From Escherichia phage MirsaeidiM_Esher1: DNA of 64,000 bases. Positions within the stretch are counted from its first letter, which is position 1. Every line of letters begins with the position of its first letter. Below are positions 41,402-53,126 of this stretch, piece by piece. Where the stretch lies: sequence record PQ438048.1; one strand, given 5' to 3'. A program made the position numbers and the translations under genes. Under the pieces are notes generated by a model. It made no database searches, was not told where the DNA came from, and saw only the letters and a list, made by a program, of their open reading frames with translations.

Positions 41402-41597
41402 TTCTACCTCCTTCAATGCTTTGTGCCGTACCATCCCAAGCCATTAGAATGTTTTCCAATAGTTCACGAGGCTCTTTAAACCAAACTTCCATTTCATCAA
41501 GAATCTCGTCCGTGTCGTAAGTATAGCCTGGAACACCAAGTTCACATTTCTTAATATAACTTTCTAACCAACGATGATAAGTCTTAGCCCCATTCAT
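41394..41597 (-). CDS. hypothetical protein (67 aa)
   Basis: ORF track. Confidence 0.55.
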   Translation of the reverse strand: MNGAKTYHRWLESYIKKCELGVPGYTYDTDEILDEMEVWFKEPRELLENILMAWDGTAQSIEGGRNE

Positions 41598-41922
41598 ACT
41601 GTGCTACCTTTTCTTTTACCCAATCTACGCGATCTTTGTCATAATGTTGAGTGCCAAGAAAAAGACCATTGTGGAAGCTTTCAGCACCGAAAGGATAAAT
41701 CGGATCTAAACCATCTTCTTCAAATAACATTTTTAGTCTCTTTGATGTAGATTTCTTAGTCTCTGAATTGTAGCTTGTGGTTATAAGCCAGTCTTCCAAA
41801 CAACGACACAAACCTTGACGAGAGTCCCAAGGAAAAACACAATCTCCAACAGGAGCTTTTTCCGCCCATTCCAACCAGCCTTTAAAAAAGTTATACAATA
41901 TGTAGTCTTCAGTGTAATACAT
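41584..41922 (-). CDS. paralog family A member 1 (GLC-x-C / FPFN / WV-DRI-like motifs)
   Basis: ATG 41922 after AAGGAGG; shares FxxWL...GLCxC...PF...WVKEKV with five other ORFs. Confidence 0.65.
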   Translation of the reverse strand: MYYTEDYILYNFFKGWLEWAEKAPVGDCVFPWDSRQGLCRCLEDWLITTSYNSETKKSTSKRLKMLFEEDGLDPIYPFGAESFHNGLFLGTQHYDKDRVDWVKEKVAQYEWG

Positions 41923-41943
41923 TAGCGCCTCCTTTACGTATAC

Positions 41944-41962
41944 AATAACACCCCGCAGAACG
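41944..41962 (-). other. intergenic GC hairpin CACCCCG-x-CGGGGTG
   Basis: Perfect 7-bp inverted repeat between two genes. Confidence 0.5.
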
Positions 41963-41973
41963 GGGTGCAACTA

Positions 41974-42585
41974 TTATTTAATCTGTTTAAAAATTTCGTT
42001 TGGAACGGTACCGTTTAAAATACCTTCTACGATCTCTTGTGCAGATGTGTAAGAGAGTCCAAAAGAAGCTACGCCTAAAATTGCCTCCTTCAAAGGATCT
42101 GGCAGGGGTTCAAAATTACCTGCAACAAAGCCACCTGCACAAGCAGCGCCTTCATCATCCCAGAAAACAACTGCTACATCGTTACCATGCGAAGTTGTGC
42201 GATGTGCAATAACTTCAACTTCGGTGCCTTCTTTAGGAACAGAATAAGAACTGTCCCAAGAATATCTTTCCAAATCAGGAACAAAGATAACCTTTTCACC
42301 TACTGGCGGCAGTTCACAACGATAATACCAAGAATTTTTTTCGTTCATTGCTTTATTTTCCTCCACGTCTTCAAAAGTAACGATCCAATCGTAGCCGTAA
42401 GAAAACGGATATTTTAGATCTAAAGAATAAGTTTGACCTAAATCGTCCTCAACAAGAACCATCCTGTCAAAGTTTGCGATGTTAGGATTATGTTTAATGA
42501 CAGGGTATGTTTCCCCTACAGTAAATTGTCCTAAATGGTAAAGTTCATCTCTCCAAGTAATTTGGATATGAGTGCATTGAATCAT
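41974..42585 (-). CDS. hypothetical protein (203 aa)
   Basis: Long ORF. Confidence 0.65.
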   Translation of the reverse strand: MIQCTHIQITWRDELYHLGQFTVGETYPVIKHNPNIANFDRMVLVEDDLGQTYSLDLKYPFSYGYDWIVTFEDVEENKAMNEKNSWYYRCELPPVGEKVIFVPDLERYSWDSSYSVPKEGTEVEVIAHRTTSHGNDVAVVFWDDEGAACAGGFVAGNFEPLPDPLKEAILGVASFGLSYTSAQEIVEGILNGTVPNEIFKQIK

Positions 42586-42589
42586 AAAA

Positions 42590-42862
42590 TCACCCCCAAG
42601 AAATATTTATATATCTTACAATGTTTGCACTGTCTAAAGCCATGTTTGCACCACACCCACGCTCGCGCCAATAACTAACAATACCTTCACAGATACTCTC
42701 TTGTATCTTCTTATCACTTGGCATTTCTAGTATAAGACTTGGGTTGTGGATGTTTATGTTATAATATCCTTCCTCTGCGGCTTGAGCTACCAATTTACTT
42801 ACTTTTTCAAAGTACGGGGAATTAGTGGCATCTGCCATTGTTTTTAAGGTTTGTCTATCCAT
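42590..42862 (-). CDS. hypothetical protein (90 aa)
   Basis: ORF track. Confidence 0.6.
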   Translation of the reverse strand: MDRQTLKTMADATNSPYFEKVSKLVAQAAEEGYYNINIHNPSLILEMPSDKKIQESICEGIVSYWRERGCGANMALDSANIVRYINISWG

Positions 42863-43227
42863 TATTCTGCCTCATCATAGAAGAAATCCAACTCTTGTTC
42901 CAGTTGTTTAACTCGCTCCTTAACCCACTGTACACGTTTTTCATTAAACATGCAACGTTTTTCCTTACACTCTTGCTCAAAAGATTTTGCTGTGTTAAAC
43001 GGGAAAGTTGTATCTAAACCAGCATTTTCAAAACTGGCTAATTGCATACCATAAACAGAATATGCTAAAGAATGATCGGCTCGAAATTCATCACTTATAT
43101 ACATACGTAGACCTCGGCATAAGCCAACATCAGCGTAACCACTTTCTCGTGGAAAGAGACGGAGGTGTTCTAACCAATTATTATAGAAATCTAAAAGAAT
43201 CCTCTTACACTTCAAATCAATTGTCAT
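42862..43227 (-). CDS. paralog family A member 2
   Basis: ATG 43227 after GAAGGAG; motifs DFYNNWL, GLCRG, FPFN, RVQWVKERV. Confidence 0.65.
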   Translation of the reverse strand: MTIDLKCKRILLDFYNNWLEHLRLFPRESGYADVGLCRGLRMYISDEFRADHSLAYSVYGMQLASFENAGLDTTFPFNTAKSFEQECKEKRCMFNEKRVQWVKERVKQLEQELDFFYDEAE

Positions 43228-51341: not shown

Positions 51342-51429
51342 AACATTCCCCTTTTAAACAAAAGACACACCGATGGTAGCAACAACCAGACGCTTATAAA
51401 CTTCAACCTCTTCTGTAGGATTAGCCATT

Positions 51430-51882
51430 TTATGCTCTGCCTAGTTCATCATACCATTTCAAAGCGTCTTTTGGAAGCATACCAAAATCTTCTTTTAGTT
51501 CTTTTTCAATCTCTTCTTTCAGTTCATTCAACACTTGCAGTTGGCGTATTTTCTTCCGTAACAAAGCTTCCCGTTCACTGTTGCTTGGTGTTACTTCATT
51601 TCCTGCTATCATCACATATCCTGTCGGAGAGCAAGGAAGATAGTCATCAATATCTTCTAAAGCATAACGATAATTGGAGTCCAGGAAGTTTACATGCACA
51701 CGATCACATCCAAACAAGGTAGCACGGAATACTTCGTAACGAGTTTCAGATAGGATATGTTGCACACAGACAATACCTACATCATTTTGCACTGCACAGG
51801 TTACATCCAACAAACTTGAATGTTCTTTGACATAATCTGCAACACATTGCACATGTGCTTCCAGTATAGATAGTTGTCTCAT
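51430..51882 (-). CDS. hypothetical protein (150 aa)
   Basis: ORF track. Confidence 0.6.
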   Translation of the reverse strand: MRQLSILEAHVQCVADYVKEHSSLLDVTCAVQNDVGIVCVQHILSETRYEVFRATLFGCDRVHVNFLDSNYRYALEDIDDYLPCSPTGYVMIAGNEVTPSNSEREALLRKKIRQLQVLNELKEEIEKELKEDFGMLPKDALKWYDELGRA

Positions 51883-52127
51883 TTCCTACCTCCCCATAAT
51901 GCTAACATTTTATTGAAAATGGAAACGCGTCGTGCGCGAGATGCCATATCATAATTCATTCTTTCCGTCTCTGCAAGAAATTGATCTACTGTAATCAAAG
52001 CTTTTGTCTTCTCTTTCAGAGTTTGCATATTCATCCATTCACATTCAGAGTACCAATTATCGAAATACAAACTATCAAGAAGATCCATTGCTGCTTCATT
52101 TTGTTGTGGTGTGATCATTGCATACAA
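51879..52127 (-). CDS. hypothetical protein (82 aa)
   Basis: ATGA overlap. Confidence 0.55.
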   Translation of the reverse strand: MYAMITPQQNEAAMDLLDSLYFDNWYSECEWMNMQTLKEKTKALITVDQFLAETERMNYDMASRARRVSIFNKMLALWGGRK

Positions 52128-52130
52128 CCT

Positions 52131-52361
52131 TTAATAAACAATTTCATATTCGTGAGGAAAGAAAACATAATCTTCCCCTTCTCGTGCATCTATCTCGTCC
52201 CAAAACCACTCCTGCACTTCCATCATCTTCGAGAATCGCACATGAGCAAGCCCACTGTATTCCACCGTAGCTTCCAACACAAGTGGGAATTTTGCACGGG
52301 TAAGTCCTTTATAACCACCATCATTCTCAATACGAATTTTCATGCGTTTCATGTTATGCAT
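52131..52361 (-). CDS. paralog family B member 2
   Basis: Similar to ORF 49002-49223 (MKIRI...LEA...W.WDE...GEDYVFF). Confidence 0.6.
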   Translation of the reverse strand: MHNMKRMKIRIENDGGYKGLTRAKFPLVLEATVEYSGLAHVRFSKMMEVQEWFWDEIDAREGEDYVFFPHEYEIVY

Positions 52362-52420
52362 TCCAATCTCCTCATTGGCTATCTGTTATGCGCGGTATGC
52401 AAACCACTATACAGACATTT

Positions 52421-52792
52421 TTATTCAATGCAAGCATTATTTGCATCTTCGATTCTGTCTTTCACCCATTGCACACGGAGTGGGTTTTCATGACACCTTT
52501 TGTGTTTGACTTCATTTTCATAATCTTGGAAGCCCATATTAAATGGAAAAACATAAGACAGGTTAGCACAAAGAAATTGAGATTTCATTTCTCTTACAAT
52601 CTTATTACGTATCTTTAAGTAGGTTATCCATTGGTCCTCTGTTGGATTGTCAGGTTGCAGTGTTGAAGCTAAGAAATTTACAAGACAAGTGCACAGACCA
52701 TTCTTCGTGCGATCCATGCTGAAGTGATCAGCCATCCACGCTTTGTAGAATCGAAGCAATTCTGCACTGCTCAACGGAATATTATTTGTCAT
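52421..52792 (-). CDS. paralog family A member 5
   Basis: Motifs RFYKAWM, GLCTC, FPFN, RVQWVKDRI. Confidence 0.6.
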   Translation of the reverse strand: MTNNIPLSSAELLRFYKAWMADHFSMDRTKNGLCTCLVNFLASTLQPDNPTEDQWITYLKIRNKIVREMKSQFLCANLSYVFPFNMGFQDYENEVKHKRCHENPLRVQWVKDRIEDANNACIE

Positions 52793-53126
52793 TTTTCTCT
52801 CCTTCGTAATCTTGAATTCTATCTAGCACCCATTGTATACGATGTTTGTTTTTATGGCAAATACGTGCTCTATGTTCGAACGTGTATTCCTCATAACCAC
52901 CCTCATTAAACGGGAAATTGTAATCCAATCCTGCACTAATAAATTGTGATCTCATCTCCTGTTGTAGACGAGGTAACAGTTCATCAGGATATGTTCCCTC
53001 TACATACTTAATCAAACATATGCACAAGCCACTCGTTGTGTGACCTTCTACTTCACCAGCAAGCCACGCTTTGTAAAACTTCATTAGACGTGGACCACTC
53101 AACGGAACATTTTTACTCTCTTGCAT
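52782..53126 (-). CDS. paralog family A member 6
   Basis: Motifs KFYKAWL, GLCIC, FPFN, RIQWVLDRI; GAGAGGAG RBS. Confidence 0.65.
   Translation of the reverse strand: MQESKNVPLSGPRLMKFYKAWLAGEVEGHTTSGLCICLIKYVEGTYPDELLPRLQQEMRSQFISAGLDYNFPFNEGGYEEYTFEHRARICHKNKHRIQWVLDRIQDYEGEKNDK

Follow-up and report, generated by a model that had tools for sequence, protein, structure and literature searches.

Phage N4, a model phage, encodes a small protein, gp3 (YP_950481; UniProt A0MZ95), that belongs to the same family as the proteins described here (HMM E-value 3.9e-22) and carries the GLC, LPFN, and CHLN..RINWI motifs. Neither a review of N4 nor the database names record a function for gp3, so that family membership gives no mechanism. 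N4 contains one copy, whereas six occur in the phage studied here, a virulent Escherichia coli myovirus of the genus Phapecoctavirus (phAPEC8-like), all within the small-gene block of the window (the whole stretch of 64,000 nucleotides analyzed). Other phages encode fusion proteins with head-to-tail repeats of the same domain (e.g., P0035, 199 aa; two proteins of 271 and 344 aa in Burkholderia phage BcepSaruman), each repeat of which keeps the conserved Cys and Arg described below; in the window the domains are separate genes, with a tandem pair (copies 5 and 6) where other phages have a fusion. The domain is also joined to Ea22-type cassettes in the Ead/Ea22-like mosaics of lambdoid prophages and phage-plasmids (P0174, P0176, P0179, and a gene of NZ_CP148392.1), whereas the window proteins, from a virulent myovirus, each consist of the domain alone.

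More distant analogies can be drawn. Poxvirus Bcl-2-like host-range families and T4 Alt/ModA/ModB are diverged paralogues of one small fold, each with its own host target, and the window's phage may be likened to them in having several diverged small-fold paralogues per viral genome; no sequence or structural relation to either group was found. Small all-helical early proteins of the T4 AsiA type bind host factors, and the window proteins would resemble them in size, in being cytoplasmic and (as predicted) all-helical, and in being encoded among putative early genes. The members and the replaced segment of copy 5 are as follows.

41584..41922, minus strand: copy 1, the most divergent member (112 aa; phAPEC8_0054 orthologue; Shine-Dalgarno AAGGAGG)
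42862..43227, minus strand: copy 2 (121 aa; phAPEC8_0051 orthologue; stop codon overlapping the start of the next gene)
46297..46623, minus strand: copy 3, the most family-typical and the modelled one (108 aa; phAPEC8_0041 orthologue)
49622..49933, minus strand: copy 4 (103 aa; phAPEC8_0030 orthologue)
52421..52792, minus strand: copy 5, downstream member of the tandem pair (123 aa; phAPEC8_0019 position)
52500..52700, minus strand: replaced central cassette within copy 5 (approximately residues 31-97, GLC to PFN)
52782..53126, minus strand: copy 6, upstream member of the tandem pair (114 aa; phAPEC8_0018 orthologue)

A first-pass annotation of this DNA had described the six minus-strand ORFs as old duplications kept in one genome, two of them in tandem, and this description holds. 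All six ORFs were found at these coordinates, a Shine-Dalgarno sequence (GGAG/AGGAGG) precedes every ATG (6/6), and the GenBank records of close relatives carry the same frames (e.g., phAPEC8_0054, 0051, 0041, 0030, 0019, and 0018). In related records, the family members are all named 'hypothetical protein'. When the copies were compared with the 664 ORFs of the window using BLASTP, 15 out of 15 copy pairs were significant (E-values 1e-27 to 6e-4; 22-41% identity), and leave-one-out HMMs regained every omitted copy among these ORFs (1e-14 to 3e-28, e.g., copy 1: 9.6e-15, copy 2: 6e-19, copy 4: 3e-19, copy 6: 2.7e-28). An HMM search of the whole window for a seventh copy found none (best non-family ORF: E-value at least 0.01). 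These results show that there are exactly six members, far beyond chance expectation, and that they form a true paralogous family. A candidate at 9406-9660 was rejected as an antisense chance match. At the DNA level, the copies share only short leftover matches at motif codons, which is consistent with old duplications. Copies 5 and 6, the tandem pair, overlap by 11 nt and are 39.7% identical (E-value 1e-27), and copy 6 is the first gene past a 1.5-kb non-coding region.

The six-way alignment contains 13 invariant columns, and the ordered motifs on which the family had been proposed hold at the residue level, with some corrections. G-L-C, P-F, and R..W-V are invariant in 6/6 copies. The central motif, given initially as [FY]PF[ND], is more correctly [FYL]-P-F-[NDG] (copy 1: YPFG, copy 3: LPFN), the C-terminal motif deviates beyond R..W-V in copy 4 (RIKWVKDYA), and the W of the N-terminal motif is displaced by a three-residue insertion in copies 3 and 4. 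Across the family, the order is G-L-C, then P-F-(N), then (C)-H-x-N-x-x-R-x-x-W-V, and the window copies follow it with deviations in copy 1 (GLCRC, YPFG, HYD..RVDWV, with G in place of the motif N) and copy 2 (GLCRG, FPFN, and CMFN where others have CHxN, the His being absent). Copy 3 (GLCAN, LPFN, CHLN..RINWV) and copy 4 (GLCSC, YPFD, LHLN..RIKWV) show the remaining variants, and copy 5 has a longer loop between helices 2 and 3. In 205 diverse family domains, the G-L-C, P-F, and R..W-V columns are 90-100% conserved. The Cys (lost in only one domain), the Arg, and Pro-Phe each reach 100%, the Asn 96%, and the His 73%, and there are eight conserved polar positions per 100 residues.

All six copies match PHROG 2510 (pVOG VOG7392) over about 100 profile residues, with E-values of about 1e-22 to 1e-32 (phrog_2510, copies 1-6: 1.4e-26, 4e-26, 8.7e-32, 6.8e-28, 3e-22, and 9.6e-25), and the ECML-183-2 record labels the orthologues at the positions of copies 2, 3, and 4 as VOG7392. 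The family could not be assigned to any named family at first pass, and a search for a confident match to a well-characterized one bears this out: the only matches are these two clusters, which are unannotated and without function, and its public names are 'hypothetical', 'uncharacterized', and 'gp3'. For the six copies, searches of Pfam, NCBIfam, PADLOC, and PDB sequences gave no family match (none of the PADLOC models of anti-phage defence components matched at an E-value of 1 or less), and when ten multi-domain relatives and 133 diverse members were scanned against Pfam, NCBIfam, and PADLOC, no match was consistent. A word-indexed protein search returned close phage relatives only, whether six or 133 queries were used, and a literature search on the family (phrog_2510, N4 gp3, Phapecoctavirus anti-defence) found no paper. 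Nevertheless, judged from profile matches, the family is real and widespread among virulent phages: 1,849 representatives (~1,850 clusters at 50% identity) were found at E-values of 1e-3 or below, including two- and three-domain fusions, and 258 phage records carry it. Among the matches listed are Phapecoctavirus, Justusliebigvirus, other E. coli myoviruses of ~137-147 kb, Schitoviridae, Autographiviridae, Drexlerviridae, and one Straboviridae phage; no member was found in the first 50 kb of T4. The only plasmid with the family is a phage-plasmid (NZ_CP148392.1). Matches in E. coli genomes are nearly all due to the shared Ea22 cassette and not to the N4 gp3-like domain, and the domain-bearing Ea22-like version occurs at 80% coverage or more in 20 of 5,426 genomes.

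The AF2 model of copy 3 (pLDDT 94.1, pTM 0.86) has five helices and no strands, and relatives in BFVD, themselves predicted structures, superpose on it at TM-scores of 0.77-0.85. The family domain is therefore predicted to be a five-helix, all-alpha unit of ~100 aa, copy 3 being the one window copy modelled; comparisons of sequence and fold found no solved structural relative. In this model, Cys35 is found where helix 2 begins, and His90, Asn92, and Arg95 where helix 5 begins. A natural two-domain fusion was modelled as one rigid unit lacking a low-confidence linker (pLDDT 94.7, pTM 0.81), which hints at a dimer. On reading the six sequences, no signal peptide or membrane segment was evident. 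The pI values range from acidic to neutral (4.4-6.8; family median 5.5), which argues against DNA binding. The idea of a DNA mimic was rejected, given that the proteins are no more than mildly acidic and that their charge differs widely from one family member to another.

Judged from substitution patterns, every copy is under purifying selection (dN/dS 0.03-0.35). Identity among orthologues and dN/dS are 95.8% and 0.10 for copy 1, 98.5% and 0.10 for copy 2, 91% and 0.35 for copy 3, 98.4% and 0.03 for copy 4, and 83% and 0.21 for copy 6. Four of the six copies are conserved like the rest of the genome (95-99%), contrary to the expectation for a fast arms race. Copy 5 is a different allele in this phage, with only ~54% amino acid identity to the same-position gene in six relatives. 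Compared to Ro121c4YLVW, its cassette has 42-46% nucleotide identity, whereas the flanks (~52400-52450 and from 52743 on) have 88-98%, and ECML-183-2 contains a chimera of the copy 6 N-terminus and the copy 5 C-terminus; these sequence comparisons mark the tandem pair as a hot spot of recombination. Close relatives differ from one another by indels in this mosaic region, and each genome compared has the six frames intact. Seven relatives carry 5-7 copies per genome, the distribution check having been among those proposed at first pass, and AV125 and ECML-183-2 have an additional copy that is 52% identical to copy 3. Across the family, members occupy 1 to 8 places per genome.

Homologues occupy early operons or regions, as defined by position, in N4-like phages and an Autographiviridae (T7-like) phage. 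For example, JG068 gp5, a family member, has annotated host promoters on one side and the early terminator on the other, and Ea9-2 gene 07 and N4 gp3 both belong to the small-gene region at the left end, upstream of RNAP1. Two hairpins, one of them terminator-like, precede N4 gp3. The latter adjoins two cofactors of N4 RNAPII, gp1 and gp2, as described in the N4 review, and in a T1-like phage the family gene comes after a helicase and a VRR-NUC nuclease. A sigma-70 promoter scan of the window's small-gene block showed no enrichment over shuffled sequences, so that early timing in this phage is no more than putative. None of the neighbouring genes in the block has an assigned function. Labels of goF and 'RNA metabolism' in some related GenBank records belong to other genes, between copies 4 and 5, and an identity with T4 GoF was rejected.

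We tentatively favour a reading in which the copies are early, cytoplasmic, probably dimeric accessory proteins acting on host factors, the parts that we infer being the early timing in this phage, dimerization, the host target, and the role of the Cys/Arg site. Most likely, each copy is a non-essential product of the leftward small-gene block, made early in infection, whose role in host takeover or counter-defence would be exerted on a proteobacterial host component. The common scaffold comprises an invariant hydrophobic core, an invariant Cys at the helix 2 N-terminus, and an invariant Arg, with a near-invariant His-x-Asn at the helix 5 N-terminus, and would probably, from the fusion model, work as a dimer. 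The Cys/Arg site may be catalytic, ligand- or metal-binding, or purely structural. The copies differ in the helix 2-3 loop and surface, from which different targets or specificities per copy or allele would follow. No experiment, named homologue, or conserved neighbour gene indicates a target, and this counts against the reading.

The paired cysteines had been taken initially as a metal or redox centre, which the family-wide alignment does not support: only the first Cys is invariant in the 205 domains, and the second position more often holds Asn (61%) than Cys (21%). The Cys preceding the conserved His is present in 47%, a search of the same domains for a fixed ligand set (at least 3-4 Cys/His, or a conserved CxC/CxxC pair) found none, and a metal site examined through co-occurrence of candidate ligand positions showed no correlation. 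That the domain is a small enzyme dependent on a thiol, or a protein dependent on redox chemistry or on a metal, is nevertheless a possible if rather unlikely alternative, in which the helix-N-terminal Cys, with a lowered pKa, would form with the Arg and His-x-Asn an active or ligand site, possibly at a dimer interface, and the paralogues would apply one chemistry to different substrates. The conservation of Cys and Arg (100%), Asn (96%), and His (73%) in diverse domains, with just one Cys loss, fits this proposal, as do the predicted positions of Cys35 opening helix 2 and His90/Asn92/Arg95 opening helix 5, the retention of Cys and Arg in both halves of fused proteins, and the likeness to a three-ligand site of the commonest combinations, C-x-N...C-H (47 domains) and C-x-C...C-H (21). 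The eight conserved polar positions per 100 residues suit an enzyme or small-ligand binder and equally well a protein-binding adaptor. However, no enzyme family matched by sequence or fold, the extra Cys/His ligands are variable (21%, 47%, and 73%) and thus provide no fixed metal site, and an all-helical domain of 100 aa is small for an enzyme. From helical periodicity in the model and conservation, Cys35 appears to share a face with the core residues L34, L38, and Y41, and Arg95 with W98 and V99, so that both could be buried and structural. Papain-like and NlpC-P60 Cys-His-Asn hydrolases carry their catalytic His on a beta-strand of an alpha/beta fold, and were rejected because the model is all-helical without strands and there is no Pfam or PDB match. 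HEPN RNases, defined by an R-x(4-6)-H motif, a four-helix bundle, and a profile match, were also rejected.

A role within the phage itself, as a regulatory or replication accessory factor (e.g., in its own transcription switch or DNA metabolism) and not directed at the host, would account for the gp1 and gp2 neighbours of N4 gp3 and for the helicase and nuclease upstream of the T1-like gene. It is improbable given that the family spans unrelated transcription strategies (N4-, T7-, T1-, T4-, and rV5-like) and 1 to 8 places per genome, that the pI range is acidic to neutral, and that no Pfam helix-turn-helix family matched. Less probable by far is selfish or decaying cargo, in which recombination in a hyperplastic region would maintain duplicated cassettes that have no present function; the mosaic region and its indels, the chimeras and cassette swaps at the tandem pair, and neighbours all without assigned function agree with it, but the intact frames with strong ribosome-binding sites, the low dN/dS, and the same invariant residues over ~1,850 clusters from very different phages speak against it.

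The host-takeover or anti-defence role proposed for the family at first pass is plausible, considering the homologues in early operons of Autographiviridae and N4-like phages, the copy-number variation, and the allelic cassette replacement in one copy. Against the anti-defence part, no experiment or known homologue ties the family to any defence system. An anti-defence gene, Atd1, has been reported in Phapecoctavirus. No similarity in sequence or fold to the window proteins was seen among known anti-defence proteins of solved structure (e.g., Ocr, Acb2, Tad1/2, and Gad1). Atd1 itself we take to be a MazG-like pyrophosphatase unrelated to the family.

The family was already known as the unannotated clusters PHROG 2510 and VOG7392, with no Pfam entry, name, or function; our analysis adds the paralogy, the conservation pattern, a confident predicted fold, purifying selection, copy-number change, cassette replacement, chimeras, and the early-operon position of homologues. 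It is among the few items of phage 'dark matter' common to very different virulent phages of Proteobacteria, N4 included. If the conserved residues are purely structural and the proteins dispensable, it would be merely one more accessory gene family. Once found, a target for N4 gp3 or for a single copy would annotate thousands of phage genes and could expose a new mechanism of host takeover or counter-defence, for which the six diverged copies, two of them reshuffled, would be a natural set of specificity variants. More speculatively, and with a rather low likelihood, an unrecognized fold would use its Cys/Arg site, through new chemistry or metal/ligand bridging, on a conserved proteobacterial target right after infection, the copies and alleles being specificity variants of a new effector class. 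Such a class, whether for host takeover or anti-defence, would be common to N4-, T7-, T1-, T4-, and rV5-like phages.

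We found all six open reading frames of the first-pass annotation, each with a ribosome-binding site (GGAG/AGGAGG) 5–9 nt upstream of its ATG, and relatives annotate the same frames (phAPEC8_0054, 0051, 0041, 0030, 0019, and 0018). The motifs proposed to unite them hold at the residue level: the six-way alignment, in which copies are 23–32% identical to the first sequence, has 13 invariant columns (among them F, G-L-C, L, F, L, P-F, R, and W-V), and the motif description was right in outline, if slightly too strict in detail. Using BLASTP against the window ORFs (664 ORFs of at least 40 codons), all 15 pairs were significant (E 1e-27 to 6e-4, 22–41% identity). 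Leave-one-out profiles built from five copies recovered the sixth (E 1e-14 to 3e-28), and the next best ORF (E 0.01 or worse) was an antisense artefact inside a plus-strand gene. The family thus has exactly six members in the window and is its largest paralogous family. DNA similarity between copies persists only as matches of 22–34 nt at the FYKAW, FPFN, and WV codons; therefore, the duplications are old, as had been suggested. For copy 1, a 9-bp GC-rich hairpin with a weak T-tract (41948–41968, minus strand) lies just upstream, inside a longer TTG-started ORF, which supports the ATG at 41922 as the start.

Family copies, with dN/dS and amino acid identity of each versus its orthologues in six close relatives
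Copy 1: 41584–41922, minus strand; dN/dS 0.10; 96%
Copy 2: 42862–43227, minus strand; dN/dS 0.10; 98%
Copy 3: 46297–46623, minus strand; dN/dS 0.35; 91%
Copy 4: 49622–49933, minus strand; dN/dS 0.03; 98%
Copy 5: 52421–52792, minus strand; dN/dS 0.23; about 53%
Copy 6: 52782–53126, minus strand; dN/dS 0.21; 83%

All six copies matched phrog_2510 (E 3e-22 to 9e-32), with weaker matches to phrog_6418 and phrog_27059; these three are function-unknown entries, and one GenBank record carries the pVOG VOG7392 tag on three orthologues (copy 2, 3, and 4 positions). The gp3 protein of phage N4 (104 aa) is a member (family HMM E 3.9e-22; GLC, LPFN, CHLN..RINWI), and every feature tested agreed with the PHROG 2510/N4 gp3 family, N4 having one copy compared to six here. 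No match was found in Pfam, NCBIfam, PADLOC, or PDB sequences for the six copies, ten longer relatives, and 133 diverse members. The names on family clusters in NCBI and UniProt are limited to ‘hypothetical’, ‘uncharacterized’, or ‘gp3’, and a literature search found no published function. Because public databases already list these genes, grouped in a cluster that has no annotation, the six copies are a new, expanded instance of a catalogued, uncharacterised family and not a new kind of system. Comparisons with papain-like hydrolases, HEPN, GoF, solved anti-defence proteins, and PADLOC defence components (no PADLOC match) did not place the six copies in any of these groups.

Among 1.84 billion cluster representatives, searched exhaustively with HMMER, 1,849 proteins matched at E<=1e-3 (887 at E<=1e-10), mostly of 95–140 aa, with two or three domain copies per chain in about 20 of the best 150 hits. 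Using tblastn, the family was found in 258 of 50,697 phage records, including Phapecoctavirus, Justusliebigvirus, and other E. coli myoviruses (~137–147 kb), N4-like Schitoviridae (e.g., Ea9-2), Autographiviridae (JG068, and Ralstonia RSB1, which we take to belong there), and Drexlerviridae (Opt-719). Several other ~70–75-kb phages among the tblastn hits, which infect Achromobacter, Klebsiella, Delftia, and E. coli, are presumably N4-like. The T4-like Yersinia phage JC221 (Straboviridae) carries four tandem members (2962–4306) directly downstream of its DNA ligase gene, one of which lacks a full-length gene annotation in the record. Among the records listed, hosts are almost all Proteobacteria; the only plasmid match was a phage-plasmid with Phd/Doc, and a version fused to an Ea22-like cassette occurs in 20 of 5,426 complete E. 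coli genomes at >=80% coverage. The family is very widespread and nearly confined to phages, mostly virulent.

Copy 3, modelled with a 34-sequence alignment, is confidently predicted to form a five-helix domain (pLDDT 94.1, pTM 0.86; helices at residues 5–19, 34–42, 50–64, 77–85, and 93–107). Foldseek found no solved structural relative at E<=1e-3 among 350,542 PDB chains, and 17 matches in BFVD at that threshold (TMq 0.69–0.85), all uncharacterized proteins. Those named come from Rhizobium, Burkholderia, Achromobacter, Delftia, Klebsiella, Pectobacterium, and Erwinia phages and a close E. coli relative, and several of these phages have more than one family copy. In the model of a natural two-domain relative (P0035, 199 aa), both domains belong to one rigid body and are joined without a weak linker (pLDDT 94.7, pTM 0.81), which hints at, and does not demonstrate, pairing of single-domain members.

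Conservation across 205 domains (best 150 distant hits, nearer hits, and the six window copies)
Cys of G-L-C: 100% (rounded; Val in one domain)
Arg opening the last helix: 100%
Pro-Phe: 100%
Trp: 97%
Gly/Leu of G-L-C: 97%/96%
Asn of H-x-N: 96%
Trp-Val: 95%/90%
Two Glu and one Gln: 78–83%
His: 73% (Tyr 13%)
Cys before His: 47%
Second Cys of the proposed pair: 21% (Asn 61%)

The first-pass annotation had taken the paired cysteines to suggest a metal or redox centre. With the second Cys at 21% and no co-variation among candidate ligand positions, a fixed Cys-pair centre is not a property of the family; this part of the interpretation is not supported, while the paralogous family and its old duplications stand. 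The model places the invariant Cys at one helix N-terminus and the invariant Arg and His-x-Asn at another. These residues could form a catalytic, ligand-binding, or metal-binding site, and a thiol- or metal-dependent enzyme or ligand binder, whose biological role would overlap with the reading preferred below, is a minority possibility. Alternatively, they could be a buried polar network holding the fold together, given that L34, L38, and Y41 are on the helical face of Cys35, and W98 and V99 on that of Arg95.

The window region 41,000–54,000 is 95–97% identical to phAPEC8, vB_EcoM-Ro121c4YLVW, and many other Phapecoctavirus genomes (E. coli myoviruses of ~150 kb, Stephanstirmvirinae). The six copies lie within a tightly packed minus-strand block of small genes (~37,150–53,126) with negative GC skew over its whole length.

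Features of the block and of the rest of the window
222–788, minus strand: cluster of three tRNA genes (Ser-GCT, Arg-TCT, Met-CAT)
37125–37148: bidirectional terminator-like hairpin (perfect 10-bp GC-rich stem, T-runs on both strands), one block border
43636–44313, minus strand: serine recombinase/invertase (Pfam Resolvase, E 5e-18), the sole Pfam match in the block
53127–54660: AT-rich stretch of 1.5 kb with no annotated gene in relatives, the other block border, directly upstream of copy 6

Plus- and minus-strand gene blocks converge at the hairpin, where GC skew switches sign. The AT-rich stretch may be an early control region or a genome end; several deposited genomes start inside it (record position 1 aligns at ~53,487–53,740). 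Almost all block genes are ‘hypothetical’ in GenBank records, and ten neighbours scanned matched only PHROGs without known function.

Early expression is well supported for relatives by the positions of their homologues. JG068 gp5 lies between annotated host promoters and the early-operon terminator, and the Ea9-2 and N4 homologues belong to the small genes with which the left end begins, upstream of RNAP1. In N4, this region is transcribed by the injected virion RNA polymerase (PMC4496689). Upstream of N4 gp3 are a terminator-like hairpin (~1,080–1,110) and a second hairpin (~1,141–1,160), and gp1 and gp2 also have similar stem-loops upstream. For the window’s phage, early timing is suggested by position only, because a sigma-70 promoter scan of the block showed no enrichment over shuffles.

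All six copies are under purifying selection, and relatives carry 5–7 copies, with an extra one in AV125 and ECML-183-2 that shares ~52% identity with copy 3. In its centre (~52,500–52,700), copy 5 has 42–46% DNA identity to the common allele, compared to 88–98% for its ends and flanks; ECML-183-2 encodes a single chimeric gene, to which copy 6 contributes the N-terminal two thirds and copy 5 the C-terminal third, and database relatives show the same mixing of N-terminal, central, and C-terminal segments. The tandem pair (copies 5 and 6) is therefore a recombination hot spot. Family members are three of the six most divergent genes among 39 compared, a suggestive excess only (hypergeometric estimate ~0.04). 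Most block genes compared share 95–100% amino acid identity with relatives; 45852–46073 (86%), 47750–48211 (79%), and 51430–51882 (67%) are further replacement hot spots.

Judged from their sequences, the six proteins, acidic to neutral (pI 4.4–6.8) and with no signal peptide or membrane segment seen, are probably functional and cytoplasmic. The best-supported reading, which we favour tentatively, is that the proteins form an early accessory module directed at a conserved proteobacterial component and probably work as dimers; the variable helix 2–3 loop and the surface would then give paralogues and alleles their different specificities. By analogy, the nearest functional parallels would be viral families of host modulators with several paralogues each, and early proteins that are small and helical, AsiA among them. 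A regulatory factor internal to the phage is rather improbable for a family spread over phages that differ in transcription strategy, and functionless cargo, set against purifying selection on every copy, is very improbable. Breadth across phage families, the invariant Cys and Arg, and the lack of a solved structural relative make the family a good experimental target, and N4’s single copy would allow simpler first experiments in a model phage.

A second minus-strand paralogue pair (49002–49223 and 52131–52361; 73 and 76 aa, 36% identity, E 3e-10) sits a short way downstream of copies 4 and 5, which hints at multi-gene instead of single-gene duplication. A third pair (45235–45789 and 50577–50876) matches at E 1e-6 over 89 aa; 42590–42862 (90 aa), whose start overlaps the copy 2 stop, has by eye a similar C-terminal ‘I-S/D-W’ ending, with no BLAST link. 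Four short plus-strand ORFs (57122–57301, 62699–62983, 63019–63150, and 63726–63875) show weak BLASTP links (E 1e-5 to 6e-4 over 23–43 aa) and could be low-complexity or repeat DNA, not genes. The mid-block serine recombinase has the same protein sequence in six relatives (100% conserved), and no convincing flanking inverted repeats were seen; some GenBank records name it ‘methionine ABC transporter ATP-binding protein’, apparently in error. The orthologue of 50904–51341 and nearby genes are labelled ‘goF mRNA metabolism modulator’ or ‘RNA metabolism moderator’ in some records, and such labels between copies 4 and 5 include a 786-nt gene missing from the window; 50904–51341 and 51430–51882 had no Pfam match, and their PHROGs are of unknown function. 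Matches to 41000–54000 include five records deposited as Campylobacter phages and ‘Acinetobacter phage vB_AbaM_ABPW7’ (96% identical), host labels that look doubtful.
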